Assembly: GCA_965221955.1 (NCBI GenBank)
Contig: CBDCTA010000029.1
Location: 495,852-559,851 of the forward strand
Length of the DNA: 64,000 nt
Reading direction: 5' to 3'
Origin: Gammaproteobacteria bacterium
GTDB lineage: Bacteria > Pseudomonadota > Gammaproteobacteria > UBA4575
The notes under the pieces were generated by a model. That model searched no databases and had not been told where the DNA came from. It saw only the letters and a program-made list of their open reading frames with translations. Below, piece after piece: positions 3,786-36,830 of the stretch. Within the stretch, counting starts at the first letter, position 1. Every line of letters begins with the position of its first letter. A program made the translations under genes and the position numbers.

Positions 3786-4859
3786 CTAGTTTAGTGTATG
3801 TTGTTGTAATGCCCATGCAACATGTTCTCTGACTAATTCGCTTGCATGGTTTCGTTTTTCTTGTAATGCGCGAAGTATTTTCGGTGAGCTGGATGCATTG
3901 CCTAGTGCTACCGCAATATTCCTCAGCCAGCATTCGTAGCCAACTCGCCTTATGGCAGAGCCTTCAGTATTTTTTAGGAAATCCTCTTCGCTCCAATTAA
4001 ATAAATCAATTAACTGCGGTGCATCTAAATTATTACGCACAGCAAAATCTGCCAGCTCACTTTTTTGTTCAAAGCGATTCCAGGGGCAATATAGTTGGCA
4101 GTCATCACAGCCATAGATGCGGTTACCCATCGCTTTTCTAAATTCAACAGGAATGGAGGTTTTTAATTCAATCGTGTGGTAAGAAATGCAACGTCGTGCA
4201 TCAAGTTTATACGGTGCAATGATTGCCTGAGTTGGACAAACTTCTATGCAGGTTTGACAGGTTCCGCAATGATTTTCGACACGCGAATCTATAGGTAATG
4301 GTAAATCGGTATATAGCTCACCAAGAAAAAACCATGAACCACATTCTTTGTTAATTAAATTGGTGTGTTTGCCTATCCAACCGAGACCGGCTTTTTCTGC
4401 TAAGGCTTTCTCAAGCACGGGGGCGCTATCGGTAAATGCTCGATAACCAAATGGCCCTACTGTATTCGCTATTTTATCTGCAAGTTTTTGTAAGCGTTTG
4501 CGAATCACTTTGTGATAGTCGCGCCCTAATGCATAGCGAGAAATATAAGCTTGTTCATAATTAGCTAATACTTCTTCTTCGCTTACTGCGTCTGGAGTTT
4601 GATAGTTAATACGTGTGGAGATGATACGAATAGTTCCAGGCACGAGTTTTTCTGGACGTGTGCGCTTCGTACCATGCTCACCCATGTAATACATTTCTCC
4701 GTGATAACCTGCATCTAGCCAATTCATTAAATGCGTTTCATGATCATTTAATTCAGTATTGCTGATACCGATTTCATCAAAGCCTAATTCTTTTCCCCAG
4801 TCTTTTATATCTTGAGCAAGCTTTGAAAAATCTATAGTTGGGTTATTCATTGCTAACAT
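3786..4859 (-). CDS. queG: tRNA epoxyqueuosine(34) reductase
   Basis: 357 aa with 4Fe-4S ferredoxin-type Cys motifs (CGTCQTCIEVCP, CDDCQLYCP) and a QueG-like C-terminus. It is divergent from nnr, as queG(yjeS)/nnr(yjeF) are in E. coli. Confidence 0.85.
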   Translation of the reverse strand: MLAMNNPTIDFSKLAQDIKDWGKELGFDEIGISNTELNDHETHLMNWLDAGYHGEMYYMGEHGTKRTRPEKLVPGTIRIISTRINYQTPDAVSEEEVLANYEQAYISRYALGRDYHKVIRKRLQKLADKIANTVGPFGYRAFTDSAPVLEKALAEKAGLGWIGKHTNLINKECGSWFFLGELYTDLPLPIDSRVENHCGTCQTCIEVCPTQAIIAPYKLDARRCISYHTIELKTSIPVEFRKAMGNRIYGCDDCQLYCPWNRFEQKSELADFAVRNNLDAPQLIDLFNWSEEDFLKNTEGSAIRRVGYECWLRNIAVALGNASSSPKILRALQEKRNHASELVREHVAWALQQHTLN

Positions 4860-5018: not shown

Positions 5019-6494
5019 ATGAGTGAATTAGCGAATCAAATTTACTTAGCACATCAAGTACGCGAGCTTGATCGTATTGCCATAGAAGAATTTAACATAC
5101 CCAGTTTTACTTTAATGCAACGTGCTGCAGAAGCAGCATTTAAAGAAATACAGCAATCATGGCCGAATGTTAGTCGTATTATCGTATTGGTGGGTACGGG
5201 CAACAATGGTGGAGATGGCTATGTGATTGCAAGTCTTGCTTTGACTGCAAATATTGCGACCCAAGTCATTCAGGTGGGTGATCATACGAAATTGCAAGGT
5301 GATGCGAAAAAAGCCCACGACTTATTTGTTGAGAAGGGTGGAAAATGTGAGGTTTTTGACGACCTTGCATATTCAGATTGTGATGTGATTGTAGATGCTT
5401 TATTGGGTACTGGTTTGACACGAATGGTTGAAGGCAATTATGCAAAAGCAATTGGTAGAGCCAATCAGCATTCAGCGCCAATATTAAGTGTTGATATTCC
5501 ATCAGGCCTTAATGCCGACAATGGTCTTGCAATGGGTATTGCAGCGGTTGCTCAGGTGACAGTGACCTTTGTAGGTATGAAGCTTGGTTTATTAACTGCA
5601 GCGGGGCGTGAGTATTCAGGTAAAATCATTTTTAATCATTTGGAAATTTCAGAAAAAGTTTATCAATCCATGCCAGCTACTTGTCAATCGATTCAATTAA
5701 GTGATTTTCAAACCTTGCTTGGTGCACGTAAAGCAGATGCGCATAAAGGTGATTTTGGTCATGTGTTGATTATTGGTGGCAATGCAGGCATGGCAGGTTC
5801 CGTGATGTTAAGTGCTGAAGCTGCGGCTAGAACGGGTGCAGGTTTGGTTTCTGTTGCTACCATTCCGCAACATGCAACAGCTGCATTGTCTTCATGTAGA
5901 GAAATCATGGTGCATGGAATAGAAGGAGTTTCACAATTAAATACCTTACTGCAACAATGTAGCGTCGTAGCAGTGGGCCCTGGGCTTGGGAAAGATGATT
6001 GGGCGAAAACTTTATTTGCTCGGGTGATGGAGTTTGAAATTCCCATGGTTGTGGATGCGGATGGGTTAAATCTTTTAGCTGGTGAGCCAATGCAAAAACC
6101 ATCGTGGGTGATTACACCGCATCCTGGTGAAGCAGCACGCTTGTTAGATTGCTCAACAAAACAAGTACAAGAAGATCGTTTGCAATCCGTGCAGGCATTA
6201 CAAAAAAAATTTGGTGGAGTAAGTGTATTGAAAGGAAGTGGAACTTTAGTAGCATCTGAAACCGATGTTTCAATTTGCACTGCAGGTAATCCGGGAATGG
6301 CAAGTGGTGGTATGGGGGATGTACTAACCGGAATTATTGCTGGTTTGTTAGCACAAGGCTTGAATATCTATGATGCTGCTCGTTTTGGTGTGCAGTTGCA
6401 TGCACAAAGTGCAGATCTTGCTGCGAAAGAGGGTATGCGTGGCATGATTGCCAGTGATTTATTTATACCACTGCGAAATTTAGTCAACGCTTAA
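5019..6494 (+). CDS. nnr: Bifunctional NAD(P)H-hydrate repair enzyme (epimerase/dehydratase, YjeF family)
   Basis: 491 aa. N-terminal YjeF_N (GTGNNGGDG) and C-terminal carbohydrate-kinase-like domain (GPGLG, GDVLTG). Confidence 0.85.
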   Translation: MSELANQIYLAHQVRELDRIAIEEFNIPSFTLMQRAAEAAFKEIQQSWPNVSRIIVLVGTGNNGGDGYVIASLALTANIATQVIQVGDHTKLQGDAKKAHDLFVEKGGKCEVFDDLAYSDCDVIVDALLGTGLTRMVEGNYAKAIGRANQHSAPILSVDIPSGLNADNGLAMGIAAVAQVTVTFVGMKLGLLTAAGREYSGKIIFNHLEISEKVYQSMPATCQSIQLSDFQTLLGARKADAHKGDFGHVLIIGGNAGMAGSVMLSAEAAARTGAGLVSVATIPQHATAALSSCREIMVHGIEGVSQLNTLLQQCSVVAVGPGLGKDDWAKTLFARVMEFEIPMVVDADGLNLLAGEPMQKPSWVITPHPGEAARLLDCSTKQVQEDRLQSVQALQKKFGGVSVLKGSGTLVASETDVSICTAGNPGMASGGMGDVLTGIIAGLLAQGLNIYDAARFGVQLHAQSADLAAKEGMRGMIASDLFIPLRNLVNA

Positions 6495-6503
6495 AGATTC
6501 CCT

Positions 6504-6950
6504 ATGACGACACTCGTAGGCGAATCTGCCACATTAGAGTTTTCTGCAAAATTTGCATCCTTATGTAAGCCACCATTAGTGATTTATTTGCAAGGTGATT
6601 TGGGTAGCGGCAAAACGACTTTTGCACGTGGATTGATCGGAGCCTTAGGGTATTGCGGCAATGTGAAGAGTCCAACATTCTCTCTAGTAGAAATCTATGA
6701 TTTTGAAGGGATGCGCCTTTACCATTTCGACCTATATCGTTTAAAAGATCCGCTTGAATTGGAGTACACCGGTATACGAGATTTGGTAGGAGAAGATGAA
6801 GTAGTGTGTCTAATCGAGTGGCCAGAGCGAGGTGGAGAAGAGTTACCGCCAGCAGATTTAGTCATAAAACTGGAATATCAAGGCGATGCTCGCAAAGTAG
6901 CTTGGCAGGCTGAATCAACAAAAGGTCAAGCGATTATCGATAAATTATGA
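6504..6950 (+). CDS. tsaE: tRNA threonylcarbamoyladenosine biosynthesis ATPase TsaE
   Basis: 148 aa with a Walker A motif GDLGSGKTTF. The position after nnr is conserved (yjeF-yjeE). Confidence 0.85.
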   Translation: MTTLVGESATLEFSAKFASLCKPPLVIYLQGDLGSGKTTFARGLIGALGYCGNVKSPTFSLVEIYDFEGMRLYHFDLYRLKDPLELEYTGIRDLVGEDEVVCLIEWPERGGEELPPADLVIKLEYQGDARKVAWQAESTKGQAIIDKL

Positions 6951-7068: not shown

Positions 7069-8508
7069 GTGCAGCAGCATTTTCATACTGGTAATCCGTT
7101 AAAAATACAGGCATCAAGATTAGCTCAAATTCTAATCTATTCCATTTCTGTGTTAGTAGGTTCAGTGTTTTTCATGCTGAGCACTTCCAGTTTTGCTGCC
7201 AACAATATTGCTCAAATCAGTGATCTTCGAATTGCCGATCGCAAGACAGAAACACGAATAGTTTTCGATTTAAACGCACCTGTAAAGCACAGTATTTTTG
7301 TACTAAAAAATCCAGACCGTGTAGTGTTGGATATCGGGCAATGCGATGCGAATGGCAAGCTCAAAGTGGGTCGCGTGGGTGGCACACTGGTTAAAGATTT
7401 GCGTTATGCACAAAAGACGAATGAAAAATTACGCGTCGTATTTGATTTAAATTCACCGGTATCCCCAAAAAGCTTTTTGTTGCCACCACAAAGTGGCAAG
7501 GCCTATCGATTAGTCATCGATCTGACTGCGACAACTGCGCTTACAACGGCTCCAAGTGAAACAAAAAAGCCGCACGCTGAACCTGTAGTAGCTATGAAAG
7601 ATGCACCTGTAAGCCGTCGTGATGTCGTCATCGCAATTGATGCAGGTCATGGAGGTAAAGACCCGGGTGCAATTGGTCGTGGAGGCACGCGTGAAAAAGA
7701 TATTGTGCTTTCTATTTCTAAAAGACTTAAAAATCTAATTGATAAAGAACCTGGAATGAAAGCAGTGTTAATTCGAGATCGTGATACTTTTGTTCCGTTA
7801 AGAGGAAGAATTAAAAAAGCCAGCAAGTTAAATGCTGATATTTTTCTTTCTATTCATGCGGATGCTGCAGTAAATCGTCGTGCTAAGGGTTCTTCGGTAT
7901 ATGTGCTATCGCAACATGGTGCAACCAGTGAGGCCGCGCGTATCTTAGCGCAACGCGAAAATGCGTCAGATAAAATTGGTGGGGTTAGCCTAGAAGACAA
8001 AGATGATGTGTTGAAATCGGTATTGGTCGATTTATCACAAACCGCGACCATTGATGCCAGTATCGACTTAGCAGAAGACATTCTTAACGAGCTCGCTAAA
8101 GTTGGAAATATATTACGAGACGAAGTAGAACAAGCGGGTTTTGCAGTGTTGAAATCGCCCGACATTCCATCTGTTTTAGTTGAGACTGCATTTATTTCAA
8201 ACCCTGCAGAAGAAAAGCGTTTAAAAACAACAACGCATCAACAAAAACTTGCTACCGCAATTCTTAAGGGTTTACGTCGTTATGCAAAAGATCATGCTCC
8301 TGCAAATGCAATTTTGGCGAGTGCTCCGACTCCTACACCACTGACTAGATACACCATAAAACGTGGCGATACCTTGTCTGGCATTGCGGTACGTTACAAA
8401 GTCAGCATTAGAGATTTACGCAAAGCGAATGGATTGCGTTCAGATGTACTTAAAGTAGGGCAAGTATTAACCATTCCAACATCACCTATGGTTACTGCTG
8501 GCGCGTAA
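7069..8508 (+). CDS. amiB: N-acetylmuramoyl-L-alanine amidase (AMIN domain + Amidase_3 + C-terminal LysM)
   Basis: 479 aa with a signal/TM N-terminus and an amidase_3 core (AIDAGHGGKDPGA, SIHADA). The C-terminal LysM reads YTIKRGDTLSGIAVRY. The name amiB is assigned by synteny (nnr-tsaE-amiB-mutL); it could equally be called amiC. Confidence 0.85.
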   Translation: MQQHFHTGNPLKIQASRLAQILIYSISVLVGSVFFMLSTSSFAANNIAQISDLRIADRKTETRIVFDLNAPVKHSIFVLKNPDRVVLDIGQCDANGKLKVGRVGGTLVKDLRYAQKTNEKLRVVFDLNSPVSPKSFLLPPQSGKAYRLVIDLTATTALTTAPSETKKPHAEPVVAMKDAPVSRRDVVIAIDAGHGGKDPGAIGRGGTREKDIVLSISKRLKNLIDKEPGMKAVLIRDRDTFVPLRGRIKKASKLNADIFLSIHADAAVNRRAKGSSVYVLSQHGATSEAARILAQRENASDKIGGVSLEDKDDVLKSVLVDLSQTATIDASIDLAEDILNELAKVGNILRDEVEQAGFAVLKSPDIPSVLVETAFISNPAEEKRLKTTTHQQKLATAILKGLRRYAKDHAPANAILASAPTPTPLTRYTIKRGDTLSGIAVRYKVSIRDLRKANGLRSDVLKVGQVLTIPTSPMVTAGA

Positions 8509-8538
8509 TTTAAAAAGTTTGATTTGAAGGGAGAGCTG

Positions 8539-8561
8539 CGCACGGATGCGCAATTATATTG
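8539..8561 (+). terminator. Possible weak terminator after amiB
   Basis: gcgca-cgga-tgcgc hairpin followed by aattatatt. The stem is only 5 bp. Confidence 0.3.
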
Positions 8562-8719
8562 TGAGTCTAGGGGTATGCGAATATGATTCGCAGAGAGGGC
8601 GACCTACAGAGATGTTGGAAGTGCTAGAAAGCAGGATGCAGTTTCTAGTGAGACGCAACTGATTAAAGTCCAGTGATTTTAATTAAGCGCAGGTTGGGGA
8701 GCTCAAAGCATATTTTCAA

Positions 8720-8749
8720 AAAGTCAGCTTTCGGTCAATAGCAGACATT
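8720..8749. promoter_or_regulatory. 30-bp imperfect palindrome motif, copy 1 (aaagtcagc-tttcggtcaata-gcagacatt), 3' of the ECF sigma gene
   Basis: Shares arms (AATGTC/GACATT) and a central core with the copies at 9820 and 10779. In minus orientation it is followed by TTTTT, so it may act as the terminator of the sigma gene. Confidence 0.45.
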
Positions 8750-8763
8750 CAATGTATCACTTA

Positions 8764-9330
8764 CTAGCAACATTGATCCTTATTTAAGCTGTTTTTTTGC
8801 TTATACTCGATCACCTTTCCAAAACGATCCTTTTCAATTTCACAACAAGCTAGAAGTTCTTCTTTTAATTTAATGCGTCCTCGCTGTATACGTGACTTCA
8901 TTCCTGAAACCGAAATACCTATTCGCTCTGCGGCATCAGCTTGCTTAATTTCATTGAAGTCTGCTAATAGCAGAGCTTCCTTGTATTTCGGTTCCAGCTT
9001 GTTTGTAAGTGGTCTCAAACATTTGGCAAATTCACTATCTACGTTGTCAGGCATACTTTCATAATCAGCTATTGTAGTTTCAAGGTCATTAACATCATTT
9101 GATGCATTTATATTCGAGTGTTTTCGGTAATAGTCTGTAATTCTATTTTTGGCAACGATGTAAATCCATGCAAGTGGATTTTCAGCATCAGTTAACGCGC
9201 CCTCATTTTGTAGTACGCTTAAGAGAATGTCGTGTACTAAATCCTCAGATACATCGACATCCACTTTGGTACGAATATACTTGGTTAATAAGGATCGCAA
9301 CTCATCCCAAGTTGTATTTAATTCGGACAT
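8764..9330 (-). CDS. ECF (sigma-70 family, group 4) RNA polymerase sigma factor with a short Cys-pair C-terminal extension
   Basis: 188 aa. Region 2 reads DLVHDILLSV...WIYIVAKNRITDYYRK and the region 4 HTH reads ADFNEIKQADAAERIGISVSGMKSRIQRGR. The roughly 35 aa tail contains two CC pairs (LLACCEI...KDQCC). Confidence 0.8.
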   Translation of the reverse strand: MSELNTTWDELRSLLTKYIRTKVDVDVSEDLVHDILLSVLQNEGALTDAENPLAWIYIVAKNRITDYYRKHSNINASNDVNDLETTIADYESMPDNVDSEFAKCLRPLTNKLEPKYKEALLLADFNEIKQADAAERIGISVSGMKSRIQRGRIKLKEELLACCEIEKDRFGKVIEYKQKNSLNKDQCC

Positions 9331-9735
9331 TTATGCACAACACGCACTTGATTTTGAGGCATTGGCTTCATCGGGATTATCGTTGGTTATGGTGTACCAC
9401 TCCCAATTTAGTCCTTGCGGCTCGGTTGACCACACTTTGTCTTGTGTCGCAAAGCAGCATGTTGTTTGATCTTCAATTTTGTTTGCGATGTCATCACGTT
9501 CGAGTCGCTTTATTACCTCACCCAAATCATCATTTTGATCTACTTCCACTCCAAGATGATTGATTCTGTCATTCGCATTGGGATCTTCAATCAGAACCAG
9601 CTTCAATGGTGGATTATCAATCACAAAGTTTGCGTATCCCTTTCTTCGTTTATGTGGCTTAGTATCGAAGAGTTTTGTGTAATAGCTTACAGCTTCGTCA
9701 ATATTCCTTACGTTTAAGGCTAATTGTAGTCTCAT
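9331..9735 (-). CDS. VOC-family metalloenzyme, ArsI/CadI-like (candidate C-As lyase / metal-induced dioxygenase)
   Basis: 134 aa. The N-terminus MRLQLALNV..LFDTKP.KRRKGYANFVIDNPPLKLVLIE...NHLGVEV matches the ArsI/CadI signature. It has a vicinal Cys pair TTCCFATQDKVW and a C-terminal SACCA. Its stop abuts the sigma start codon (TAA-ATG). Confidence 0.6.
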   Translation of the reverse strand: MRLQLALNVRNIDEAVSYYTKLFDTKPHKRRKGYANFVIDNPPLKLVLIEDPNANDRINHLGVEVDQNDDLGEVIKRLERDDIANKIEDQTTCCFATQDKVWSTEPQGLNWEWYTITNDNPDEANASKSSACCA

Positions 9736-9819
9736 AGTACTTGCTCCAAATTCATTAATTGAGTTAGTAGTAAAAGACGTTTCAAAAAGGAAAAGGACGC
9801 AAAAATTAGTTAACTGGGG

Positions 9820-9849
9820 AATGCCCGCTTTGGGTCGTTAGCGGACATT
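9820..9849. promoter_or_regulatory. 30-bp imperfect palindrome motif, copy 2 (aatgcccgc-tttgggtcgtta-gcggacatt), upstream of the VOC-sigma operon
   Basis: It lies 85 bp upstream of the VOC gene start on the minus strand. Loop/core tttgggtcgtta is identical to copy 3. Confidence 0.5.
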
Positions 9850-9991
9850 TTAAGATTGTAAATTACTGATTCCAACACATTGCGTCCCATAATTTGTCTG
9901 CATTCGGCTCAGAAGTGTCCATTTGCTCGTATCTTGATTGAGTGCTTGTTAGCGACTGTATAACTTATTCAATAATACAATGAGCAATTTC

Positions 9992-10183
9992 TTAGCGTTC
10001 GATTCGAACCTCATCCATCTTGGACATCCTTCTTTTAAGTTCTTTCTCAAGGATATTTCTTGCATACGGTTTCATTCTCTTCCATTTCTCACATTCCTGT
10101 TCAGTTCGACCGCAACCCAGGCACCAGCCTTTGGGTCCTTTGAACTGACACACATCGATACAAGGACTTTTTTGCCGTTTCAC
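9992..10183 (-). CDS. DUF1289 family Cys-rich small protein (putative Fe-S/metal-binding)
   Basis: 63 aa. SPCIDVCQFKG..GWCLGCGRTEQECEKWKRM matches the DUF1289 (YdhL-like) pattern. It has a GTG start. Confidence 0.6.
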   Translation of the reverse strand: MKRQKSPCIDVCQFKGPKGWCLGCGRTEQECEKWKRMKPYARNILEKELKRRMSKMDEVRIER

Positions 10184-10229
10184 TGTTTATTGCACCATTT
10201 AAACGCTTGTGCTTTTTTATCAACTCAAG

Positions 10230-10706
10230 CTAGGTTTGCACTAGACTCAGTGCTTGTTCTATACCTTTTTCCAGCTGTCGAAGTCTGTTGAACTCTTCGA
10301 GTAGCCGTTGTTCCAAATTCTTAAAATTGAGAGGGAGCGTTCTTTTACAAATGCTGTATCCTTCACCGATCTGATAACCCTTCCAATTTTTTATACGATC
10401 GCTTTCTAGGGCTAGAAATTCTTGAATGAATTCCTGCTGTGAAGGGCAATCTTCTTCTGCATGCATACAGATTGGGAAGGCTTTTTGTTTAATTTCTCTG
10501 GCTTCTATGAAAGTTTCAAAATGTATTCCTCCTTGATTATGATTGTGCCAGTTATATTTGTAGAGTTGCAGATAAACACCGCGGTTGTAAATTTCCCAAC
10601 CACTATCAAACCAACTTGATTGATTAATTTTTCTTTCAAGGTTTCGAAAAACTTTTTTTATATCTTTCATGTTTAGGATATTTCTTAATTTAAAGTCGGT
10701 AGACAA
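10230..10706 (-). CDS. Hypothetical protein (158 aa), no recognisable domain
   Basis: Long ORF immediately upstream of the DUF1289 gene on the same strand (46 bp gap). No domain recognised by eye. Confidence 0.45.
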   Translation of the reverse strand: MSTDFKLRNILNMKDIKKVFRNLERKINQSSWFDSGWEIYNRGVYLQLYKYNWHNHNQGGIHFETFIEAREIKQKAFPICMHAEEDCPSQQEFIQEFLALESDRIKNWKGYQIGEGYSICKRTLPLNFKNLEQRLLEEFNRLRQLEKGIEQALSLVQT

Positions 10707-10778
10707 AAGCTAATAGTTACGAAACTTTGATGAAATATGGAAAAGTGCAAATACGAATCTTATTATCATAAATTAATT

Positions 10779-10808
10779 AATGTCTGCTTTGGGTCGTTAG
10801 CGGCCATT
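10779..10808. promoter_or_regulatory. 30-bp imperfect palindrome motif, copy 3 (aatgtctgc-tttgggtcgtta-gcggccatt), between sohB 3' end and the orphan ORF start
   Basis: Same core as copy 2. It overlaps the sohB stop region and lies about 70 bp upstream of the 10706 start. Confidence 0.5.
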
Positions 10809-11833
10809 CAATTAAACAATTTCGAGTCTTGTTCTTTTTGCCACCAAGAAAAAAATAATTTATCTATGGTCATCTGCATGGAGGTTGCAAAACGTTCGCT
10901 GATGGTTTTAGGCACTTCATATTTAATTTCATAAATGTCTGCCTCGTTGCTCGCGTTTAATAAGTAATCGTCACTGGTAATCAGTTCATCTACGAGTTTG
11001 AGCTCAAGTCCGCGTGTGGCAAGCCAATGTTCACCTGTAGCGACTTTATCGATTTCAAGAATAGGACGATTCTCTTTTACAAACTCTTTGAATAAGTCGT
11101 GAGTGTCTTCTAATTGCTCGTTAAAATGCGCACGATCTTCATCGGTGTTTTTACCAAACATGGTGACTGTGCGCTTGAGCTCACCTGCCTTCATCAATTC
11201 AAAGTCCACACCATGCTTATCTAGAAAGCGATTGAAGTTTGGTAATTGTGCTAGTACGCCAATGGAGCCAACGATGGCAAAAGGAGCAGCAATAATTTTG
11301 TCGGCTACGCATGCCATCATATAGCCACCGCTTGCGGCTACCTTGTCGACTGCAACAGTGAGTGGAATACCTTTTTGTTTTATGCGTAAAAGTTGCGAAG
11401 AAGCGAAACCATGTTCATGTACTAATCCGCCAGCATTTTCTAAACAAACCACCACCTCATCTGAGCTATCCGCTACTGATAAAATTGCTGTGATCTCTTT
11501 TCTGAGATGGCGTACAGCAGAAGCTTTTATGTTGCCTAAGAAATTAAGTACAAAAATACGTTTTTTATCTGTATCAGGATGTTTCTTTTCTTTTTTACGT
11601 TCTTTCTTATTTTCTTTTTTTACCTTTTTTAAATCTTTTTTAGATAACAAAGCAAAACGTAGTCGATCAGACATATTCTTATACTTTTTATTTAGATGAG
11701 TGATCTCAAAATGATCATGGCTACGTGCTTTTTTCGAAAAGGAAAATGCCAGCATCATAAGTACCCAAATAAAAATCAGGGCGGTGATTGCCTTGGCAAA
11801 AAATAATCCGTATTCGGTTAAAAATTCGATCAT
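10808..11833 (-). CDS. sohB: Inner-membrane protease SohB (peptidase S49 family)
   Basis: 341 aa. N-terminal TM segment, then a Lys-rich linker and an S49/ClpP-fold region (GGLVHEHG, ASGGYMMAC). Confidence 0.8.
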   Translation of the reverse strand: MIEFLTEYGLFFAKAITALIFIWVLMMLAFSFSKKARSHDHFEITHLNKKYKNMSDRLRFALLSKKDLKKVKKENKKERKKEKKHPDTDKKRIFVLNFLGNIKASAVRHLRKEITAILSVADSSDEVVVCLENAGGLVHEHGFASSQLLRIKQKGIPLTVAVDKVAASGGYMMACVADKIIAAPFAIVGSIGVLAQLPNFNRFLDKHGVDFELMKAGELKRTVTMFGKNTDEDRAHFNEQLEDTHDLFKEFVKENRPILEIDKVATGEHWLATRGLELKLVDELITSDDYLLNASNEADIYEIKYEVPKTISERFATSMQMTIDKLFFSWWQKEQDSKLFN

Positions 11834-11857
11834 GGGCTGATTTCCTAGTTTATTTTG

Positions 11858-12694
11858 TTATTCCTGATATAGGCATTCGTAGCTGCTGAAGAATTGTCCA
11901 TGTGCATTCTCTGAGGAATCATCGTAGAACAACGACTTCAATTGTAATCGGGGTGTGTTTAGAATAGATCCGTCAATAATGGTTCTGAAGATTTCGCTGC
12001 CTAACAATTGATGTGAAGTACTTAAGTAAATTTTGCTGAGTTGTTGATCTTCAACCATGGTATGCAGCATTTTAGGTCCAGCGATTAAATAAAAATGTTT
12101 ATAGTTTTTACGAATAAGTGCATCTATTAAAGGTTTGCCTTCTACCAAACTAGATTCTCCCGTGATGAGCACTTCAAATCCTTCTTCTTGCCACTGCTTA
12201 ATTTTATTTTCATCGGCGTTTTGTCCAGTAGCAATATAAACTTGTTGAGTATTTTCTTTCAGTGATGGATGCATGGGAAAATCGAGGCTAGCGCTTGCAA
12301 TAACCAAGGCTGGATGTGGCGACAATCCTTGTAGCGTTCGCCAGTTATATAAATCTTCACAGTCTCTTTCATCAGGTAGTTGTAGGATATTACCTAGTTT
12401 TTTTTCAGCTAAAGCGCGCATATAACCACCGTGGGTGATTAAACAATCTGCTTGCGCGTGGAGTTCTAAAAATAATCGAAAATCTTCATCACTCGTAAGT
12501 GATTTGGGGAGTTCAGCAGCTTGGATGTTGCTTGAGCTTATGGCGATGCGCCCATCAAGACTGCTTAGAAAATTAGCAACTACAGTAGCTTGTTCTGAGT
12601 TGGATGAATACCAGCCATGTTTGTATAGATATAGATTTTTTAATTCAATTGTTTCAGAGGACTGAGGATAAAGTTGTAAAAGCTTCTTAGCCAT
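11858..12694 (-). CDS. RibD C-terminal-domain-like reductase family protein (dihydrofolate-reductase-like fold)
   Basis: 278 aa. The N-terminal ...VVANFLSSLDGRIA... is typical of RibD_C/YwjB-like reductases. The assignment is moderate. Confidence 0.55.
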   Translation of the reverse strand: MAKKLLQLYPQSSETIELKNLYLYKHGWYSSNSEQATVVANFLSSLDGRIAISSSNIQAAELPKSLTSDEDFRLFLELHAQADCLITHGGYMRALAEKKLGNILQLPDERDCEDLYNWRTLQGLSPHPALVIASASLDFPMHPSLKENTQQVYIATGQNADENKIKQWQEEGFEVLITGESSLVEGKPLIDALIRKNYKHFYLIAGPKMLHTMVEDQQLSKIYLSTSHQLLGSEIFRTIIDGSILNTPRLQLKSLFYDDSSENAHGQFFSSYECLYQE

Positions 12695-12773
12695 AACAGC
12701 TGGATTAAAAATTCTGGGTTATAGGATTGTTATGATTATCATTGGATAATTTTGCATTATCCTAGCACGACCT

Positions 12774-13154
12774 TTGTATAAATTTATGCAAAAACCAAAC
12801 ATTTCCATCGCAATTCCAAAGCAGCGCTATAAGTTTGGCGCATATACGATTGTTGTACTTGAAGAAATTGAATCTAAGGGTGAAATTGAATTCCTCTATT
12901 TGCTTGCAGGTATTAAAGACGGGCACAATGAGCCTGAAATTTACATCACATGTGAAAAAGCACAGCCAGATTCAATTGAAAAAGGCTCTCACATTATTAG
13001 AGTATTTGCCCAACAATTAGACTCCGAGCAATCGGGTAGTGTTATCGATCAATCCAATTCATGGAGCGATCGAGACGCTTTTGTTTCCTATGGTCTTTCG
13101 GGTTTTAAACAGATGTTGGGTTTAGAAGATGAAGAGCCTTATTTATTAGTGTAG
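12774..13154 (+). CDS. Hypothetical protein (126 aa)
   Basis: ORF with no clear SD and no recognisable domain. It is divergent from the reductase gene. Confidence 0.35.
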   Translation: MYKFMQKPNISIAIPKQRYKFGAYTIVVLEEIESKGEIEFLYLLAGIKDGHNEPEIYITCEKAQPDSIEKGSHIIRVFAQQLDSEQSGSVIDQSNSWSDRDAFVSYGLSGFKQMLGLEDEEPYLLV

Positions 13155-13163
13155 CCAACTATT

Positions 13164-14975
13164 ATGAATTCTATTCAACAGCTTCCTCCACAGTTAGTAA
13201 ATCAAATTGCAGCCGGTGAAGTGATCGAACGGCCTGCTTCAGTTTTAAAAGAGTTACTGGAAAATGCTTTGGATGCAGGTGCGACAAAAATTATTATTGA
13301 ATTGGAACAAGGGGGTATGCAATCTATTCGAGTAAGTGATAACGGTCTAGGTATCCCTAAAGATGAAATTCATATGGCGGTACAACGCCATGCGACCAGC
13401 AAAATTGCTTCCATGGATGATCTTGAGCACATCGCTACCTTGGGATTTCGAGGTGAAGCCTTACCAAGCATCGCATCGGTTTCAAAGTTTAGTTTAGCTT
13501 CTAATAATAGTGAAGAAGGCAATGCAGGTTGGGTAATCAGTTCAGACGGTAGAGAATTCAACGAAGAAGTTATGCCGGTGCGACAAACACGTGGCACGAC
13601 AGTTGAGGTAAAAGATTTATTTTTTAACGTGCCCGCGAGAAAAAAATTCTTACGCACTGAGAAAACTGAGCTTAAGCACTGTGACAATGTATTACGTAAA
13701 ATCGCATTAAGTCGCTTTGATGTAACCGTGATCGCGAAACACAATGGGCGCAATGTGTTTGAGGTAAGTGCATGCGACTTTTTTGAAAAGGGCTCGGATC
13801 GAGTAGGTCAAATCAGTGGTAAGCAATTTGCCGAGCAAAGCATTTACTTAGAAAACGCTGCTCAAGATATTCAAATACAAGGTTGGATTAGCTTACCTAC
13901 TTTTTCTCGTAGCCAAGCTGACTTGCAATATTTTTATGTAAACGGACGTGTGATTCGAGACAAAGTGATTTCGCATGCTATCAAACAAGCGTATCAAGAT
14001 GTGTTGTATCACGGTCGTTTCCCCGCGTTTGTATTGTTTTTAGAAATGGATCCGGTACAGGTAGATGTAAATGCGCACCCAACCAAGCACGAGGTTCGGT
14101 TTCGCCAAAGTCGTTATGTACACGACTTTATTCGACACACGGTGGGTAAAGCGATTGCAGAAACAATGCCCAAGCAAGAACAACAAGGGGCAGAACAATA
14201 CCGAGAAATTGTTGATGATTATATTCGTGCGGCACAAAGCCAAAGTGCAGTAAAAGATCATTCTTATTCACATGCGAGCTCAACCTCGCAGCATGTGCGT
14301 GAACCTGTGCATAGTTATGCTACGCAAACCGCTAATGAATATGATTTGTTGTTAAGAATGCCCCCTGAAGAAGCGCATACTACAGAAGAAGCGCCACCTC
14401 TAGGTTATGCCATTGAACAATTACACGGTATTTATATCTTGGCTCAAAACGCAAAGGGATTGGTGATTGTAGACATGCACGCAGCACATGAACGCATTGT
14501 GTATGAAAAGCTAAAAACTTCTTATCAACAAGGTGAGCTTGCTACACAACCATTACTGATGCCGTTAACCATCAATGTAAGTCCGCAAGAAGCAGTATTG
14601 GCCGAACAACATAGTGAAGCGTTTTTAAAATTTGGTTTTCATATAGAGCGTTTTGGTGAAGATAGTATTGTGGTGCGAGAAATTCCTTCTTTGCTGCAGC
14701 AAGCAGATGTCAATACATTGGTGCTAGATGTGCTAGCCGATTTAAATATGTTTGGTAGTTCAGAAAAATTAGAGCAAGCGAATAATGAATTATTGTCAAC
14801 GATGGCATGCTACGGTTCGGTACGTGCACACAGAAAACTTACGCTTGCAGAAATGAATGCCTTGTTACGTGAAATGGAAGCCACAGAAAGAAGTTCGCAA
14901 TGCAATCATGGAAGGCCAACTTGGGTGCAATTGAGTATTGATCAGCTCGATAAACTCTTCAAGCGCGGCCAATAG
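13164..14975 (+). CDS. mutL: DNA mismatch repair protein MutL
   Basis: 603 aa. N-terminal GHKL ATPase (NQIAAGEVIERPASVLKELLENALDAGAT) and a C-terminal dimerisation domain. Confidence 0.9.
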   Translation: MNSIQQLPPQLVNQIAAGEVIERPASVLKELLENALDAGATKIIIELEQGGMQSIRVSDNGLGIPKDEIHMAVQRHATSKIASMDDLEHIATLGFRGEALPSIASVSKFSLASNNSEEGNAGWVISSDGREFNEEVMPVRQTRGTTVEVKDLFFNVPARKKFLRTEKTELKHCDNVLRKIALSRFDVTVIAKHNGRNVFEVSACDFFEKGSDRVGQISGKQFAEQSIYLENAAQDIQIQGWISLPTFSRSQADLQYFYVNGRVIRDKVISHAIKQAYQDVLYHGRFPAFVLFLEMDPVQVDVNAHPTKHEVRFRQSRYVHDFIRHTVGKAIAETMPKQEQQGAEQYREIVDDYIRAAQSQSAVKDHSYSHASSTSQHVREPVHSYATQTANEYDLLLRMPPEEAHTTEEAPPLGYAIEQLHGIYILAQNAKGLVIVDMHAAHERIVYEKLKTSYQQGELATQPLLMPLTINVSPQEAVLAEQHSEAFLKFGFHIERFGEDSIVVREIPSLLQQADVNTLVLDVLADLNMFGSSEKLEQANNELLSTMACYGSVRAHRKLTLAEMNALLREMEATERSSQCNHGRPTWVQLSIDQLDKLFKRGQ

Positions 14976-27477: not shown

Positions 27478-28224
27478 TTGGGTGTGAAAAATATTTCGTT
27501 TGGTTTATACAGTTGTATGGCTGCAATACAGCAACGATCATTTCATATACAAGAAGTATGTTTGCTAGATAGCAGAAACGATAAGCGTATGCAGGAAATT
27601 AAAGATGCGCTAGTTGCAAATAATATTTCGCATCGTTCTGTGAATAAAAAAGAACTAGAACAGCTATGCGGTGAAGTGAATCACCAAGGTGTGGTGGTAG
27701 TATATAAAGAGCAACAAACCAATAATGAAGCCACTTTGCTAGAGTATTGTGCGCAAGCCACTGAGCCATTGCTGTTGTTGGTGCTGGATCAAATTGTCGA
27801 TCCACATAACTTAGGTGCTTGTTTGCGTACTGCAGAAGCAGCAGGGGCAAATGCGGTGATCAGTTCAACGCGTAACTCTGCGCCTTTGACACCCACAGTG
27901 CGTAAAGTTGCGTGTGGAGCTGCCGAACGGGTTCCCCTTATTTTTGCTAAAAATCTTGCGCGTTTTTTAGATGAGCTTAAACAACTCGGCGTTTGGGTGT
28001 ATGGCACACAACCCACAGCGACAAAATTAATCTATGAAGCGGATTTTAGTCGTTCAACTGCACTCGTGATTGGTGCCGAAGGCTCAGGGATGCGTAGATT
28101 AGTCAGTGAGAAATGTGACGAATTATTACGCTTGCCCATGTCAGGAGAAATGGCCAGCCTTAATGCTTCTGTCGCCACGGGTATTGGATTATTTGAAGCG
28201 GTGAGACAACGGTTAGAGGCCTGA
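27478..28224 (+). CDS. rlmB: 23S rRNA (guanosine2251-2'-O)-methyltransferase
   Basis: 248 aa SpoU/TrmH methyltransferase. Its position after rnr is conserved. Confidence 0.85.
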   Translation: MGVKNISFGLYSCMAAIQQRSFHIQEVCLLDSRNDKRMQEIKDALVANNISHRSVNKKELEQLCGEVNHQGVVVVYKEQQTNNEATLLEYCAQATEPLLLLVLDQIVDPHNLGACLRTAEAAGANAVISSTRNSAPLTPTVRKVACGAAERVPLIFAKNLARFLDELKQLGVWVYGTQPTATKLIYEADFSRSTALVIGAEGSGMRRLVSEKCDELLRLPMSGEMASLNASVATGIGLFEAVRQRLEA

Positions 28225-28383
28225 GCCGTGCGATATCCACTCATCTGTTTAGGGTAATTTTCAAGTGTCTTGCCTACTAAGAGGGCATCACGTACACTTC
28301 GCGGCTCAAAATTCAGTAACTCCTTGCTTCACCGGGCCATACCTATGGTTACTGGGAGGCTTTAACCCATAGGGAGCATATAT

Positions 28384-28866
28384 ATGCGTCACTACGAAAT
28401 AGTGTTTCTGGTGCATCCTGACCAGAGCGACCAAGTCCCTGCGATGACAGAGCGTTATCGTTCTATTATCGATCAGGGTAATGGCAAAGTTCACCGCCTA
28501 GAAGATTGGGGACGTTTGCAACTTGCCTATCCGATTCAAAAGATTCATAAAGCACATTATGTGTTAATGAATATCGAGTGTAATCAAGAAGTCTTAGATG
28601 AGCTCACCAGTTCGTTTCGTTTTAACGATGCAGTGATTCGTAACATGGTGATTTCTGCGAAAAGAGCAGAGACTGAAAAGTCTGCAATGCTAAAAATGAT
28701 TGAGCAAGAAGAAGCGGATAGTGGCAAAAAAACTGCCACTCAATCTAGCTCTGACTACTCGCAAGAACGCTCAACTGATGAGCCTGCTATAGAAGAAAGT
28801 CAGGCAGAAGCCCCGGCTGAAGCTGAACAAACTGAAGAAGCCGTTGCAGAGACATCTGAAAGTTAA
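28384..28866 (+). CDS. rpsF: 30S ribosomal protein S6 (with acidic C-terminal tail)
   Basis: 160 aa. [14 protein letters not shown] is the canonical S6 N-terminus. Confidence 0.9.
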
Positions 28867-28890
28867 CGAATAGAATTAAAGGAAAATATC

Positions 28891-29115
28891 ATGGCACATT
28901 ATTTTCGTAGAAGAAGGTATTGCCGCTTCACAGAAGAAGGCATTGAAGAAGTTGATTACAAAGACATTGCAATCTTAAAAGATTTCATTACGGAAACCGG
29001 TAAGATTGTGCCCAGTCGAGTAACCGGTACTAAGGCTAAATACCAACGCCAGTTATCTACCGCGATTAAACGGGCAAGATACATAGCGCTATTACCTTAC
29101 AGCGATCGCCACTAA
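28891..29115 (+). CDS. rpsR: 30S ribosomal protein S18
   Basis: 74 aa with a canonical S18 sequence (RRRYCRFT...DYKD..LK.FI...GKI). Confidence 0.95.
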
Positions 29116-29234
29116 GTATCTCCAGTAAGATCTAAGTAAATCTGCTATCTGGGTTAATTCTACAAAAAGTGGTTAATTTATAAGCGATTACGCTACTCAA
29201 TTTTTATTATAATGGTTTATACAAAGAGAACGTT

Positions 29235-29684
29235 ATGGAAGTCATTTTACTAACTAAAGTCGATAATCTTGGTGACTTAGGTGACAAGGTTAAAGTGCGC
29301 CCTGGTTATGCGCGCAATTTTTTAATTCCCAGTGGTAAAGCAAAATTTGCAACGGCTGAGAATTTAGCGGAGTTTGAAGCGCGTCGTGTGGAGTTAGAAA
29401 AACTTGCTGCTGAAGCATTGGCAAGTGCTGAAGCGCGTAAAGCTGAATTAGATGGCGCTAAGATTAGTATCACTGCAAAAGAAGTTGGCGAAGGCAAGTT
29501 GTTTGGTTCGGTTGGAATGGTCGATATCGTTAATGCTTTAAATGAAGCAGGTAAGAAGGTAGAAAAGAAAGAAGTACGCTTACCCGATGGTTCTTTCCAT
29601 CATGTCGGGGAGTATCAAGTGGATATTCATTTACACTCTGATGTGAATGCAACGATTAACTTAGAGATTATTGGCGAAGAATAG
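29235..29684 (+). CDS. rplI: 50S ribosomal protein L9
   Basis: 149 aa. MEVILL..V..LG..G..V.V..GYARNFL.P is the L9 N-terminus. Confidence 0.9.
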   Translation: MEVILLTKVDNLGDLGDKVKVRPGYARNFLIPSGKAKFATAENLAEFEARRVELEKLAAEALASAEARKAELDGAKISITAKEVGEGKLFGSVGMVDIVNALNEAGKKVEKKEVRLPDGSFHHVGEYQVDIHLHSDVNATINLEIIGEE

Positions 29685-29720
29685 TCGTTACGCCATGCGT
29701 CACCATGTTAATATAATATT

Positions 29721-31262
29721 GTGGCTGAATTAACTACGATTGGCACGGAGTTTGGGGCCACAAATACTGAAAGCCTACGCACGCTTCCTTATTCATTGGA
29801 GGCAGAACAAGCCGTAATCGGCGGACTCATTCTAGATAACTCCACTTGGGACCAGGTGGCGGATCGCATTAATGAAAACGATTTTCATTTATTTGATCAT
29901 CGACTGATCTTTAGAACCATTGATGAGTTAGTAGAAAAGCAACAGCCGTTTGATGTGCTTACGCTTTCTGACTTATTGCGTCAGAAAGCTGAAATTTCCG
30001 ATACTAATATTCTTGCCTACCTTGGTACACTTGCGAATGACACCCCCAGTGCAGCCAATATTCGTGCTTATGCGGATATTGTTCGTGAAAAATCAATTCT
30101 TAGACAGCTAGTAACTACCGGCAATGAAATTGCTTCGAGTGGGTTATCTCCTGAGGGGCGGGATGTAAATGAATTATTAGATGAAGCTGAACAAAAAGTT
30201 TTTCAGATTTCTGATCACAGCGTACATACCAGCCAAGGTTTTCAAAATATAAAATCGCTACTCAAAACTACAGTTGAACAAATTGATGAATTGTTTGAAC
30301 GCGGTGATCACATTACAGGTTTGCCGAGTGGCTATGATGAATTCGATGAGAAAACCGCAGGTTTGCAGAACGGCGAACTCATTATTGTCGCGGGTCGCCC
30401 GTCAATGGGTAAAACTAGTTTTGCAATGAACATTGTTGAATATGCTGCCTTGCGTAGTAATGCATCCGTTGCGATTTTTAGTATGGAAATGCCGGGGCGT
30501 TCGTTAACCATGAGAATGTTATCTTCTATGGGACGGATTGATGCGCAACGCATACGTACAGGTAAGTTAACCGATGATGATTGGCCGCGTCTTACTAGTG
30601 CGGTTTCGATGTTGTCCGAGTCTAATTTATTTATTGATGATACGGCAGCGCTTTCACCAACTGAATTACGCGCGCGTGCTAGACGTTTGAAACGTGAGCA
30701 TGGCTTATCTTTAATCATAGTGGATTATTTGCAGTTGATGCAGGTTAGCGGTACTACAGAAAATCGTGCAACTGAAATATCTGAAATCTCGCGTTCTTTA
30801 AAAGCCTTAGCAAAAGAATTAGATCTGCCTATTATTGCTTTGTCGCAATTAAATCGTAGTTTAGAACAACGCACAGATAAGCGCCCTGTGATGTCTGATT
30901 TACGTGAATCAGGAGCGATAGAGCAAGATGCAGATTTGATTGTATTTATCTATCGAGATGAAGTGTATAACGAAGACTCTCCTGATCAAGGTACCGCGGA
31001 AATCATTGTGGCAAAACAACGTAATGGTCCTATTTTTAAAACGAGACTGACGTTCTTAGGTCAATACACGCGTTTTGAAAACTATGTGCCAGAGATTTAT
31101 GTAGGAGGTCCGATGACTGGAGAAAGCTTTTCCAGTTCGAATATGACTAATCCAAGCAGTCCTTCACCGGACCCTGGTTTTACAGAACAAAAGTTTTCTG
31201 ATAAAAGTTTTCCTGCTAATGATTTTCCTAATGATATCCCTGATGACATTGATGATGATTAA
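29721..31262 (+). CDS. dnaB: Replicative DNA helicase DnaB
   Basis: 513 aa. The N-terminal domain reads AEQAVIGGLILDN. The RecA-like domain has GRPSMGKT and the IIVDYLQLM stretch. Confidence 0.9.
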   Translation: MAELTTIGTEFGATNTESLRTLPYSLEAEQAVIGGLILDNSTWDQVADRINENDFHLFDHRLIFRTIDELVEKQQPFDVLTLSDLLRQKAEISDTNILAYLGTLANDTPSAANIRAYADIVREKSILRQLVTTGNEIASSGLSPEGRDVNELLDEAEQKVFQISDHSVHTSQGFQNIKSLLKTTVEQIDELFERGDHITGLPSGYDEFDEKTAGLQNGELIIVAGRPSMGKTSFAMNIVEYAALRSNASVAIFSMEMPGRSLTMRMLSSMGRIDAQRIRTGKLTDDDWPRLTSAVSMLSESNLFIDDTAALSPTELRARARRLKREHGLSLIIVDYLQLMQVSGTTENRATEISEISRSLKALAKELDLPIIALSQLNRSLEQRTDKRPVMSDLRESGAIEQDADLIVFIYRDEVYNEDSPDQGTAEIIVAKQRNGPIFKTRLTFLGQYTRFENYVPEIYVGGPMTGESFSSSNMTNPSSPSPDPGFTEQKFSDKSFPANDFPNDIPDDIDDD

Positions 31263-34058: not shown

Positions 34059-34276
34059 AAAATTAATGTAATCGTGTTCAATAAGCTTCTGCTTGGAGGT
34101 GGTATTTTCTTAAAATAGGATGTATTTCAAAGAGTTAAAATCCCATAAAAAAATATGGAATTTGTAGAAAATGTGACGTAATTCCGTTGATCAAATGACG
34201 AAATTTCGTGACTATAGGTACTCTTAATCTTGTTTATAAGTCGTGCTAGAAGGCGTGACTCCGGAGTTGGTAATCA

Positions 34277-34774
34277 GTGAAGTCATACGAACAATCTGAA
34301 GATGCGATAAGTGATGCTCAGTTAGCGCTAGAGCGTCGTGATCGTCGTGATCGTCGCACACCTTCCTTGAAGGGATTTGTCTATGGCTTGTTTTTGGCCA
34401 GGCGTCGTGGCCCTCGACGTGCAGAAAATTTATATCAATATAGTGATTGGTACGATGTTAAGTTATTAGTGCTATCGCTTAGCTTATTATTGTTGTCGTG
34501 CTTAGATGCTGCGATGACAATGAAGTTGTTATCTTTGGGTGCGGTGGAACTAAACCCAATCATGAACGAGTTGATCAATCAGGGCACACGTTATTTTATT
34601 TGGATTAAAATTGCTATTACTGCGTTGTGTGTCATCGTGCTCGTTGCTCACAATCGTTTTAAGCTGTTTAATTTTTTACGTGTCGACGTAATTCTCATTA
34701 CCGCAGTATTTATTTATCTAGGTTTGGTGACTTACGAGTTTTATCTGTATACCTTGGGTATACCTGCAGTTTAA
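34277..34774 (+). CDS. Membrane protein (DUF5658-like, 4 TM) with N-terminal Arg-rich DRR repeats
   Basis: 165 aa with a GTG start. N-terminal RRDRRDRRTPSLKG...RRRGPRR, followed by four hydrophobic helices. Confidence 0.5.
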   Translation: MKSYEQSEDAISDAQLALERRDRRDRRTPSLKGFVYGLFLARRRGPRRAENLYQYSDWYDVKLLVLSLSLLLLSCLDAAMTMKLLSLGAVELNPIMNELINQGTRYFIWIKIAITALCVIVLVAHNRFKLFNFLRVDVILITAVFIYLGLVTYEFYLYTLGIPAV

Positions 34775-35127
34775 TTAAGCGATCCAATTAAGCTTTCATT
34801 TGGGTCTTGACGGATCTTTTTTAATTCTCTTTTCCAGAGTTTTATATTTTTAGGGCTTACGCCTTTTTCTACACTGTCTAGCCATTGGTCATGGCAGTTC
34901 ATGACGAGTTCTAATCCTTCGTCAGTGAAATCTGAAACCTTTATTTCTAGTGAATGCCAGTCTTCGACTGCTTTGGGTAGTTTGTTTTTATATAAGCTAC
35001 TTTCAAGTAAAAAACCTAATAATGGCTCATATCTTGATTTGAACTTTTCAATCGCATCCAGCTTGGAAGCGTCATCCATTTCTTCGTATATGTACCATTT
35101 GCACGCATCAATCGTGAATTCTTTCAT
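34771..35127 (-). CDS. Hypothetical protein (118 aa)
   Basis: ATG start with aagga SD about 7 nt upstream. No recognisable domain. Lies in the very AT-rich block. Confidence 0.4.
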   Translation of the reverse strand: MKEFTIDACKWYIYEEMDDASKLDAIEKFKSRYEPLLGFLLESSLYKNKLPKAVEDWHSLEIKVSDFTDEGLELVMNCHDQWLDSVEKGVSPKNIKLWKRELKKIRQDPNESLIGSLN

Positions 35128-35283
35128 TGAGCATCCTTTGGTTTAGAGTTCCATTATTATATTTCTAAAAAACGTATTGTTATTTAATATATCTTTTGCA
35201 TACAAATGTTATGTAAGCATGTCATCTGGATTTATTTACCATTTATCCTAATTGTTAATATTATTTGGTTTGTATTTAATTTT

Positions 35284-36818: not shown

Positions 36819-36830
36819 GCGAGGTTGTAA

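Follow-up and report, generated by a model that had tools for sequence, protein, structure and literature searches.

In the amiB-mutL-miaA-hfq-hflX superoperon of Escherichia coli K-12, amiB and mutL lie 9 nucleotides (nt) apart. In a 64,000-nt stretch from a member of the Gammaproteobacteria (GenBank assembly GCA_965221955.1, contig CBDCTA010000029.1, positions 495,852 to 559,851; hereafter the window), the flanking order queG-nnr-tsaE-amiB-mutL-miaA-hfq-hflXKC is identical to that of K-12, as judged by tblastn synteny and the K-12 gene order, whereas the amiB-mutL gap is 4.65 kb and holds seven genes. How did this block come to interrupt so conserved an order? A preliminary description had correctly matched the flanks to the E. 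coli operon and had proposed a single 4.6-kb accessory island containing three copies of a 30-bp palindrome. Our analysis points, with moderate confidence, to an insertion in two layers, one fixed in the lineage and the other a variable slot whose palindrome-bounded cassettes are exchanged at the palindromes.

Genes between positions 8400 and 13300 were called from an open reading frame (ORF) listing with translation and from Pfam and NCBIfam scans, and all of these agreed with the seven genes and coordinates given earlier (Table 1). Exact-sequence look-ups of proteins of the window matched no record. A scan based on MutL, with one genome per species, yielded 80 loci, which were mapped by tblastn. 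amiB immediately precedes mutL in about 75 gammaproteobacteria (MutL at most 55% identical) as well as in E. coli K-12, confirming that the block breaks a conserved order. The nearest three genomes are metagenome-assembled genomes of Gammaproteobacteria, with MutL identities of 86% (L001), 84% (L002) and 64% (L003). All three carry a 122-aa ORF ahead of mutL, and the sohB and RibD_C-like genes are also present in L001 and L003; the L002 contig reaches only the ORF next to mutL, the sohB/RibD_C position lying beyond its end. In the complete 2.65-Mb genome CP046178.1 (MutL 86% identical), the order is panBC-pgi-queG-nnr-tsaE-amiB-(76 nt)-sohB-RibD_C-ORF-mutL-miaA-hfq-hflXKC. Because sohB, the RibD_C-like gene and the 122-aa ORF stand at the same position in every lineage member seen, the mutL-proximal 2.35 kb (10808-13160) is, as judged from the five members examined, ancestral to the lineage.

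The amiB-proximal half (8509-10807) is distributed differently among these relatives. The amiB-sohB junction is empty in L003 (about 190 nt) and in CP046178.1 (76 nt), is occupied in L001 by a minus-strand gene for a GAF-GGDEF diguanylate cyclase of 334 aa (L001:6238-7242), and holds four genes in the window; its content is polymorphic for presence and absence. The preliminary description had taken the same genes at this position in all relatives, with a composition like that of the backbone, to be the mark of an ancestral block. Positions 10808-13160 bear this mark and 8509-10807 do not, so that the accessory island it described survives as the variable half only.

Composition, which had been expected to tell backbone from insertion, did not separate the two layers. 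The guanine-cytosine (GC) content of the block is 0.38, against 0.40-0.42 in the flanks; the largest tetranucleotide distance of any 2.3-kb window across the block corresponds to z = 1.1; and GC at third codon positions overlaps that of the backbone. The strongest tetranucleotide outliers of the 64 kb lie at about 27750-30050 and 34000-37500 (L1 distance 0.234-0.242, mean 0.195) and exceed the block in atypicality. Other marks of a classical island were likewise missing: no tRNA gene lies within 30 kb, and neither the block nor its immediate neighbourhood encodes an integrase. Only 8509-10807 varied in presence from one close relative to another. Two minus-strand tRNA genes (46621-46694 and 46928-47011) are the sole matches in the window at Rfam gathering thresholds.

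We then examined how the variable half is built. On the minus strand, it consists of two tandem cassettes of two genes each. The sohB stop is overlapped by 1 nt by a palindrome (copy 3), followed by 108 nt, the gene for a 146-aa protein, 46 nt, a DUF1289 gene and 68 nt. Next come a decayed palindrome (9923-9891), a spacer with a GTTGGAA box, a second palindrome (copy 2), 84 nt, and a vicinal oxygen chelate (VOC) gene abutting an extracytoplasmic function (ECF) sigma factor gene. A further 14 nt lead to the third palindrome (copy 1), a 211-nt spacer with several hairpins and the amiB stop. The palindromes belong to one 30-base family, ATGTCCGCT-N10-AGCGGACAT, a member of which stands at the start and at the end of each cassette. 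Their arms are alike, and their loops fall into two types, AACGACCCAA in h1 and ATTGRCCGAA in h2. Both cassettes open (5′) with h1 and close (3′) with h2, in the same orientation. The palindromes, touched on only briefly in the preliminary description, proved to be the feature most informative about structure. All three copies noted previously are real, none being expected by chance (0 matches in 100 shuffles of the sequence), but copy 1 is of the h2 type and hence is not the same unit as copies 2 and 3, which are h1.

To locate the family in the window, a covariance model built from 74 members was run with filters off. Across the 64 kb it found three copies, at 51, 44 and 30 bits, all inside 2.1 kb and each at a cassette boundary; the next-best site scored 11.9 bits (E = 0.12). 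The model found no copy in 20 kb of the homologous core region of CP046178.1, and it missed the decayed h2 copy at the 3′ end of cassette 1.

Both gene pairs recur elsewhere in association with palindromes. The VOC-ECF pair, together with about 70 nt upstream, is present at 80% nucleotide identity in CP046178.1 at another locus (L218), after groESL, where the two genes abut as in the window; the homology stops 14 nt short of palindrome copy 2. That locus reads groEL, h1, Glyoxalase, h2, EF-hand, h2, mini-hairpins, VOC-ECF, Amidase_2. In a further locus (L217), the ECF protein is 84% identical, and an h2 palindrome comes next after the pair, with unrelated genes beyond it. In L081, a 146-aa gene 84% identical in nucleotides has an h2 palindrome 39 nt upstream and an EF-hand gene downstream in place of DUF1289. 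The h2 variant of copy 1 is the one found after the ECF homologue in L217 and flanking genes in L081 and L218. In an alignment of occupied and empty intergenic regions, L003 and L001 were too diverged to place breakpoints and only CP046178.1 was informative: its empty amiB-sohB site keeps a decayed h1, TGGATCGTAAGCAGACATT, matching at 16 of 19 positions and located 15 nt from the sohB stop. On the strength of this empty site and of the copies in CP046178.1, L217 and L081, sequence comparison shows the two gene pairs as apparent units of movement that end at palindromes. Consistent with this, gene-length homology between contigs ended within 30-45 nt of a palindrome in 18-20 of 53 cases (34-38%), compared with 9-11% expected.

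These observations suggest the following course of events. The lineage-fixed layer would have entered between amiB and mutL in an ancestor of the lineage and created a convergent amiB-sohB junction, which the second layer now fills and which would act as a variable slot. Each cassette would comprise a 5′ h1, its own upstream region, two genes and a 3′ h2, with a landing site in the palindrome already resident just 3′ of sohB; recombination at the palindromes would bring cassettes in, remove them or shift them to other loci. We regard such exchange as the most likely mechanism, although the recombination step itself, and the enzyme that would carry it out, are inferred.

Several points weigh against this interpretation. 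We found no recombinase or transposase in or beside the block, and none recurs beside palindromes elsewhere, where the neighbouring proteins are heterogeneous; a Phage_integrase domain occurs in 2 of 150 neighbour proteins in metagenomes. In L001, the GGDEF gene that occupies the slot has no palindrome detectable around it, which indicates that the slot can change by other routes. The palindrome remnant of CP046178.1 could equally be a deletion scar. The enrichment of homology ends near palindromes is only suggestive, because palindromes and homology ends both favour intergenic DNA. There is no compositional sign of recent foreign origin, and the relatives compared number only four or five, without a known branching order. 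As to gene content, the sequence upstream of the 146-aa gene in the window contains no convincing Zur box, and the sigma factor scores below the SigZ equivalog cut-offs.

The palindrome family extends well beyond this lineage. An exact-match search of metagenome contigs with the 24-nt h1 core, GYCYGCTTTGGGTCGTTAGCRGVC, returned at least 120 matches in contigs of 32-66% GC, for which a rough estimate of the chance expectation is below 1. Among 128 aligned copies, conservation was confined to aATGTCCGCT-TTGGGTCGTT-AGCGGACat, and the flanks were not conserved. After the element there are usually additional units that share its arms. Junctions of AT-rich contigs consist of h2, a spacer with GGTTGGAA, and h1 (L154), and those of GC-rich contigs are mosaics of about 195 nt, in which four same-arm palindromic units stand in fixed order with conserved spacers (L085). 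The mosaics of L085, at 4590-4785 and 5412-5605, recur every ~820 bp. Contigs L154, L130 and L085 carry arrays with one ORF per interval between junction elements, and longer contigs have the elements interspersed with ordinary chromosomal genes, among them those for PqiAB, Tgt and major facilitator superfamily transporters. Flanking genes are on the strand opposite to h1 about four times more often than on the same strand.

Two explanations of the palindrome itself were rejected. Stem positions vary independently, and their covariation equals that of shuffled controls; on this ground an explanation as structured RNA was set aside. It is not an intrinsic terminator either, because it has no T-run. 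Rfam gave no match for the block or for ten palindrome-bearing loci at gathering or E-value thresholds, and a literature search with the palindrome sequence in both orientations found no paper. The 24-mer had 0 matches in viral contigs; therefore, there is no link to phages.

In plasmids, a BLAST search with the 30-mer gave seven marginal matches. The covariance model supported a copy after vapBC in a Citrobacter plasmid and one adjoining a GNAT/DUF1778 toxin-antitoxin pair in an E. coli plasmid (34-36 bits), as well as two copies in the Ag43/YeeP island of E. coli (21-24 bits); a Halomonas copy had weaker support than those of Citrobacter and E. coli. A variant, AATGTCCGCTTTGTGCCAGnAGCGGAC, is present in 1-5 copies in about half of complete E. 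coli genomes. Its sites include L227:2997-3034 and 5031-5068 (E. coli chromosome, Ag43/YeeP island), L228:2998-3035 (E. coli plasmid) and L203:3997-4034 (Citrobacter plasmid); they lie between unannotated hypothetical genes of the integrative island or beside plasmid toxin-antitoxin genes, with no feature annotated.

A bolder extension, which we offer tentatively and do not expect to hold, is that an undescribed system for shuffling cassettes, with no linked recombinase gene, works at the h1/h2 units and the 110-195-nt mosaic junctions. Across Proteobacteria it would carry modules of one or two genes from one chromosomal hot spot, island or plasmid to another, and the amiB-sohB slot would be one of its landing pads.

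We weighed four other explanations. In the first, the four genes of the variable half are ancestral and were deleted or replaced in relatives, and the palindromes are host terminators or stabilisers resembling repetitive extragenic palindromes (REPs), with no part in mobility. Backbone-like composition fits this history, as does the graded identity of ECF homologues, from 100% to 53%, as in vertical descent within a clade; the CP046178.1 remnant would then be a deletion scar, and the palindromes do lie 3′ of genes. Yet at least three independent losses or replacements would be needed (in L003, CP046178.1 and L001), and CP046178.1 has VOC-ECF elsewhere, again among palindromes. The palindromes also have no T-run; neither the remaining 62 kb of the window nor core regions of the relatives contain them, and they are common to unrelated taxa. 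We consider this explanation unlikely.

Decidedly unlikely, too, is the proposal that the palindromes are ends or miniature derivatives of an HUH-type transposon acting in trans, of the kind seen in insertion sequences IS200/IS605 and their palindrome-associated transposable elements or in REPIN/RAYT systems, with the cassettes as cargo between an h1 left end and an h2 right end. As in IS200/IS605-type elements, related hairpins occur at both ends in the same orientation: two related but distinct types, h1 5′ and h2 3′ of each cassette. The strand bias and the mosaic clusters would fit, as would the h2 loop of L217, which is split by another small element. Against this, neither a Y1 HUH transposase (TnpA) nor TnpB was found in the block or among the recurrent or neighbouring proteins of the copies; no conserved GTAG-type guide tetranucleotide stands beside the hairpin; the stem shows no covariation; and the copy number seen in this lineage is low.

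Another possibility is that the palindromes are attC-like and that the variable half is an integron-type array, or a cluster of attC sites lacking an integrase (CALIN), with the integrase encoded elsewhere. The likeness is that imperfect palindromes punctuate arrays of short cassettes in a common orientation, and the cassettes recur in different contexts: the metagenome arrays consist of co-oriented single ORFs with an element every 650-850 bp, the composite junctions, at 110-195 nt, match or come close to attC sites in size, and orientation is biased relative to the genes. By inspection, however, neither the single units nor the composite junctions have the core-site pair RYYYAAC (R″) and GTTRRRY (R′) at their ends, and we rejected an attC assignment. 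Moreover, the window cassettes have two genes with their own conserved upstream region, and many copies are single and scattered among ordinary chromosomal genes in longer contigs. No integron integrase or attI accompanies the arrays, no intI is near the window cassettes, whose neighbours are all housekeeping genes, and metagenome neighbours with Phage_integrase are as rare as stated above. We regard this reading as very unlikely. Scarcely tenable is a single, recently acquired 4.6-kb island in which all seven genes arrived together by horizontal transfer: the whole block is indeed absent from the more distant gammaproteobacteria and E. coli, and six of seven genes are on the strand opposite to the flanks, but sohB, the RibD_C-like gene and the 122-aa ORF are here in all lineage members seen, down to 64% MutL identity, the 122-aa family is found only in this clade, composition is backbone-like, and the two halves are distributed differently. 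The two-layer insertion with exchange at the palindromes is thus the reading that we retain.

Table 1. Genes, palindromes and spacers of the amiB-mutL block and its flanks (window coordinates; CM, covariance model)
Feature	Position	Strand	Basis or remark
nnr	5019-6494		upstream of amiB
tsaE	6504-6950		upstream of amiB
amiB, left backbone flank	7069-8508	+	Pfam AMIN, Amidase_3, LysM; synteny in 80 loci; E. coli K-12 order
211-nt structured spacer, several mini-hairpins	8509-8719	.	fold z-score -3.2 (minus strand), -2.3 (plus strand)
Palindrome copy 1, h2 variant, loop TTCGGTCAAT; cassette 2 3′ end, 14 nt past ECF stop	8720-8749	+	CM 30.4 bits
ECF sigma factor, SigZ/CorE-like (ECF238-type)	8764-9330	-	Pfam Sigma70_r2, r4_2; NCBIfam; 139 homologues
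ArsI/CadI-family VOC metalloenzyme	9331-9735	-	NF041414, 177.9 bits (cut-off 116); stop abuts ECF start
Putative VOC-ECF promoter region, travels with gene pair	9736-9819	-	80% nt identity to L218 reaches ~70 nt upstream of VOC
Palindrome copy 2, h1; cassette 2 5′ end	9820-9849	+	CM 43.6 bits; DNA fold -8.1 kcal/mol (minus strand)
Inter-cassette spacer box GTGTTGGAATC (minus strand)	9868-9878	-	shared with junction elements of AT-rich metagenome arrays
Decayed h2-type palindrome; cassette 1 3′ end	9891-9923	-	by-eye alignment to L154 and L218 h2 units
DUF1289 small Cys-rich protein, cassette 1 second gene	9992-10183	-	Pfam PF06945
146-aa conserved protein, cassette 1 first gene	10230-10670	-	family in zinc-starvation neighbourhoods
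Palindrome copy 3, h1; cassette 1 5′ end, 1-nt overlap with sohB stop	10779-10808	+	CM 50.9 bits
sohB, S49 peptidase	10808-11833	-	NF008745, 473 bits (cut-off 259); here also in L001, L003, CP046178.1 (L223)
RibD_C-like reductase	11858-12694	-	Pfam PF01872; synteny
122-aa ORF, clade-restricted	12786-13154	+	stop 9 nt before mutL start; ahead of mutL in L001, L002, L003, CP046178.1 (L223)
mutL, right backbone flank, then miaA, hfq, hflXKC	13164-14975	+	Pfam; synteny

The first gene of cassette 1 had been called at 10230-10706 and labelled an orphan. Translation almost certainly begins at the ATG at 10670 and yields 146 aa, and the orphan label does not hold: homologues number 609, are 72-91% identical and come from Bacteroidota, Nitrospinota, Lentisphaerota and many Proteobacteria. 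This family of 145-147-aa proteins matched no model in Pfam or NCBIfam, and the name DUF4304, given to one member by one source, was not reproduced by the Pfam scan. The gene is also followed by DUF1289 in Enterovibrio and Nitronauta. In Nitronauta it lies between PRA-CH, PyrC-like, FolE2 and Zip genes on one side and DUF1289, TonB-dependent receptor and cation diffusion facilitator genes on the other, and in another set of contigs it follows znuCBA and cobW. The family thus recurs beside znuABC, COG0523, FolE2 and other zinc-sparing paralogues in unrelated genomes. In Enterovibrio a Zur-box-like palindrome, GTTATGTTATAACATTAC, precedes the gene; the corresponding region of the window offers only an imperfect repeat, TTTATGATAATAAGATTCGTATTT, which is AT-rich and Fur/Zur-like. 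A literature search for DUF1289 together with Zur found no paper. Residues H50, E52, H70, E72, D74 and C108 are invariant His, Glu, Asp and Cys positions of the family. A structure model of the 146-aa protein (predicted local distance difference test score 91.6) has YktB/DUF1054, type III secretion chaperones and frataxin as its nearest folds. From its gene neighbourhoods, we read the 146-aa protein as a putative zinc-starvation protein, and cassette 1 would be regulated by zinc in this genome.

In cassette 2, the VOC protein contains a vicinal Cys pair (TTCC..QDK.W motif, TTCCFATQDKVW), which we take to be the catalytic residues of this ArsI-type enzyme. The best NCBIfam models for the ECF sigma factor are those of SigZ, with scores below the cut-offs (148.6 bits against 212, and 144.7 against 168.65). 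ECF238 sigma factors have a short Cys-rich tail and no anti-sigma factor; within the group, CorE is activated directly by Cu, and CorE2 by Cd and Zn (PMC7826278; PMC8999054). Like CorE, CorE2 and SigZ, the sigma factor of the window combines sigma2 and sigma4 domains with a short Cys-containing C-terminal extension, ..LLACCEIE..KDQCC (ACC..(24 aa)..QCC), and no anti-sigma gene adjoins it, its neighbours being the VOC gene and a palindrome. It differs from them in its sub-threshold SigZ scores and in its linker, which has a single Cys and lacks the CXC motif typical of the CorE/ECF44 subgroup (PMC8999054). With no anti-sigma factor involved, the Cys tail would itself be the sensor of a metal or metalloid, and the sigma factor, presumably metal-specific, would drive its own operon. 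Most simply, the conserved 70 nt upstream of the VOC gene would be a putative autoregulated promoter.

The 211-nt spacer between copy 1 and the amiB stop contains the mini-hairpins TGCGCA-CGGA-TGCGCA, TGCGAAT-ATG-ATTCGCA and CTAGAAA...TTTCTAG, the first of which (8537-8552) is terminator-like for amiB. A BLAST search of the spacer against all fetched sequences returned only itself. The spacer has the motif TGCGAnTCATATTCGCA in common with L218, where it adjoins the VOC-ECF pair. At L217:885-995, about 95 nt of inserted mini-hairpins, whose loops read ATCC, interrupt the h2 loop 3′ of the ECF gene, and similar mini-hairpins occur in the window spacer and upstream of the VOC gene at L218:7446-7526. 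They have the look of a second family of small repeats, for which the palindromes may be targets.

In the lineage-fixed half, the small plus-strand ORF had been called at 12774-13154, but its homologues begin at the ATG at 12786, giving 122 aa. Pfam and NCBIfam scans gave no match. Only 81 family members were found, all 59-100% identical, and on this basis the family is confined to the present clade as far as the homologues indicate. With 4.65 kb separating it from amiB, mutL would need a promoter of its own upstream of this ORF, and we infer that it is transcribed from a putative promoter there. A 20-nt near-perfect palindrome, TTTGTATAAATTTATGCAAA, covers the ORF start codon (12773-12792) and could act on the ORF-mutL unit as an operator or in the control of translation.

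Judged as a gene island, the block is nothing unusual: a rearrangement specific to the lineage, with a small variable slot of metal-stress genes. Taken together, our results indicate that an operon-breaking block can hold DNA of very different ages, which comparison of relatives separates and composition does not. They also remove a protein from the orphans and place its cross-phylum family in zinc-starvation clusters. The palindrome family has an unusual mix of properties: its sequence is kept across very different genomes without stem covariation, and it is strand-biased and concentrated at variable-gene junctions. It is absent from Rfam and from the searchable literature.

Among known repeats, the palindromes most invite comparison with REPs and with the mosaic elements (BIMEs) and REPINs built from them, which are likewise short imperfect intergenic palindromes, often in mosaic clusters with conserved spacers, as in the four units in fixed order of L085. 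Canonical REPs, however, are species- or genus-specific, number from hundreds to about 1500 per genome, and mark old, stable regions while missing from recently acquired DNA (PMC3390384). Here, by contrast, the significant copies in the 64 kb all fall in the variable segment, and the same 24-nt core is shared by contigs of 32-66% GC as well as plasmids and islands of enterobacteria rather than confined to one species. The GTAG/GTGG tetranucleotide 5′ of REPs was not found in the 128 aligned copies, in which nothing is conserved outside aATG...CATt.

The pdif modules of Acinetobacter plasmids offer another parallel. In these, one or two genes are bounded by partly palindromic XerC/D sites of about 28-30 bp and turn up in various replicons with no recombinase gene of their own close by, much as in the window cassettes. 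The sites themselves are unrelated in sequence: dif has an 11-6-11 layout with a TTATGTTAAAT arm, whereas the palindromes described here are 10-10-10, and their units are direct rather than alternating. If the palindromes do mediate cassette exchange, they would add one more way of shuffling genes to those offered by integrons and Xer-site modules.

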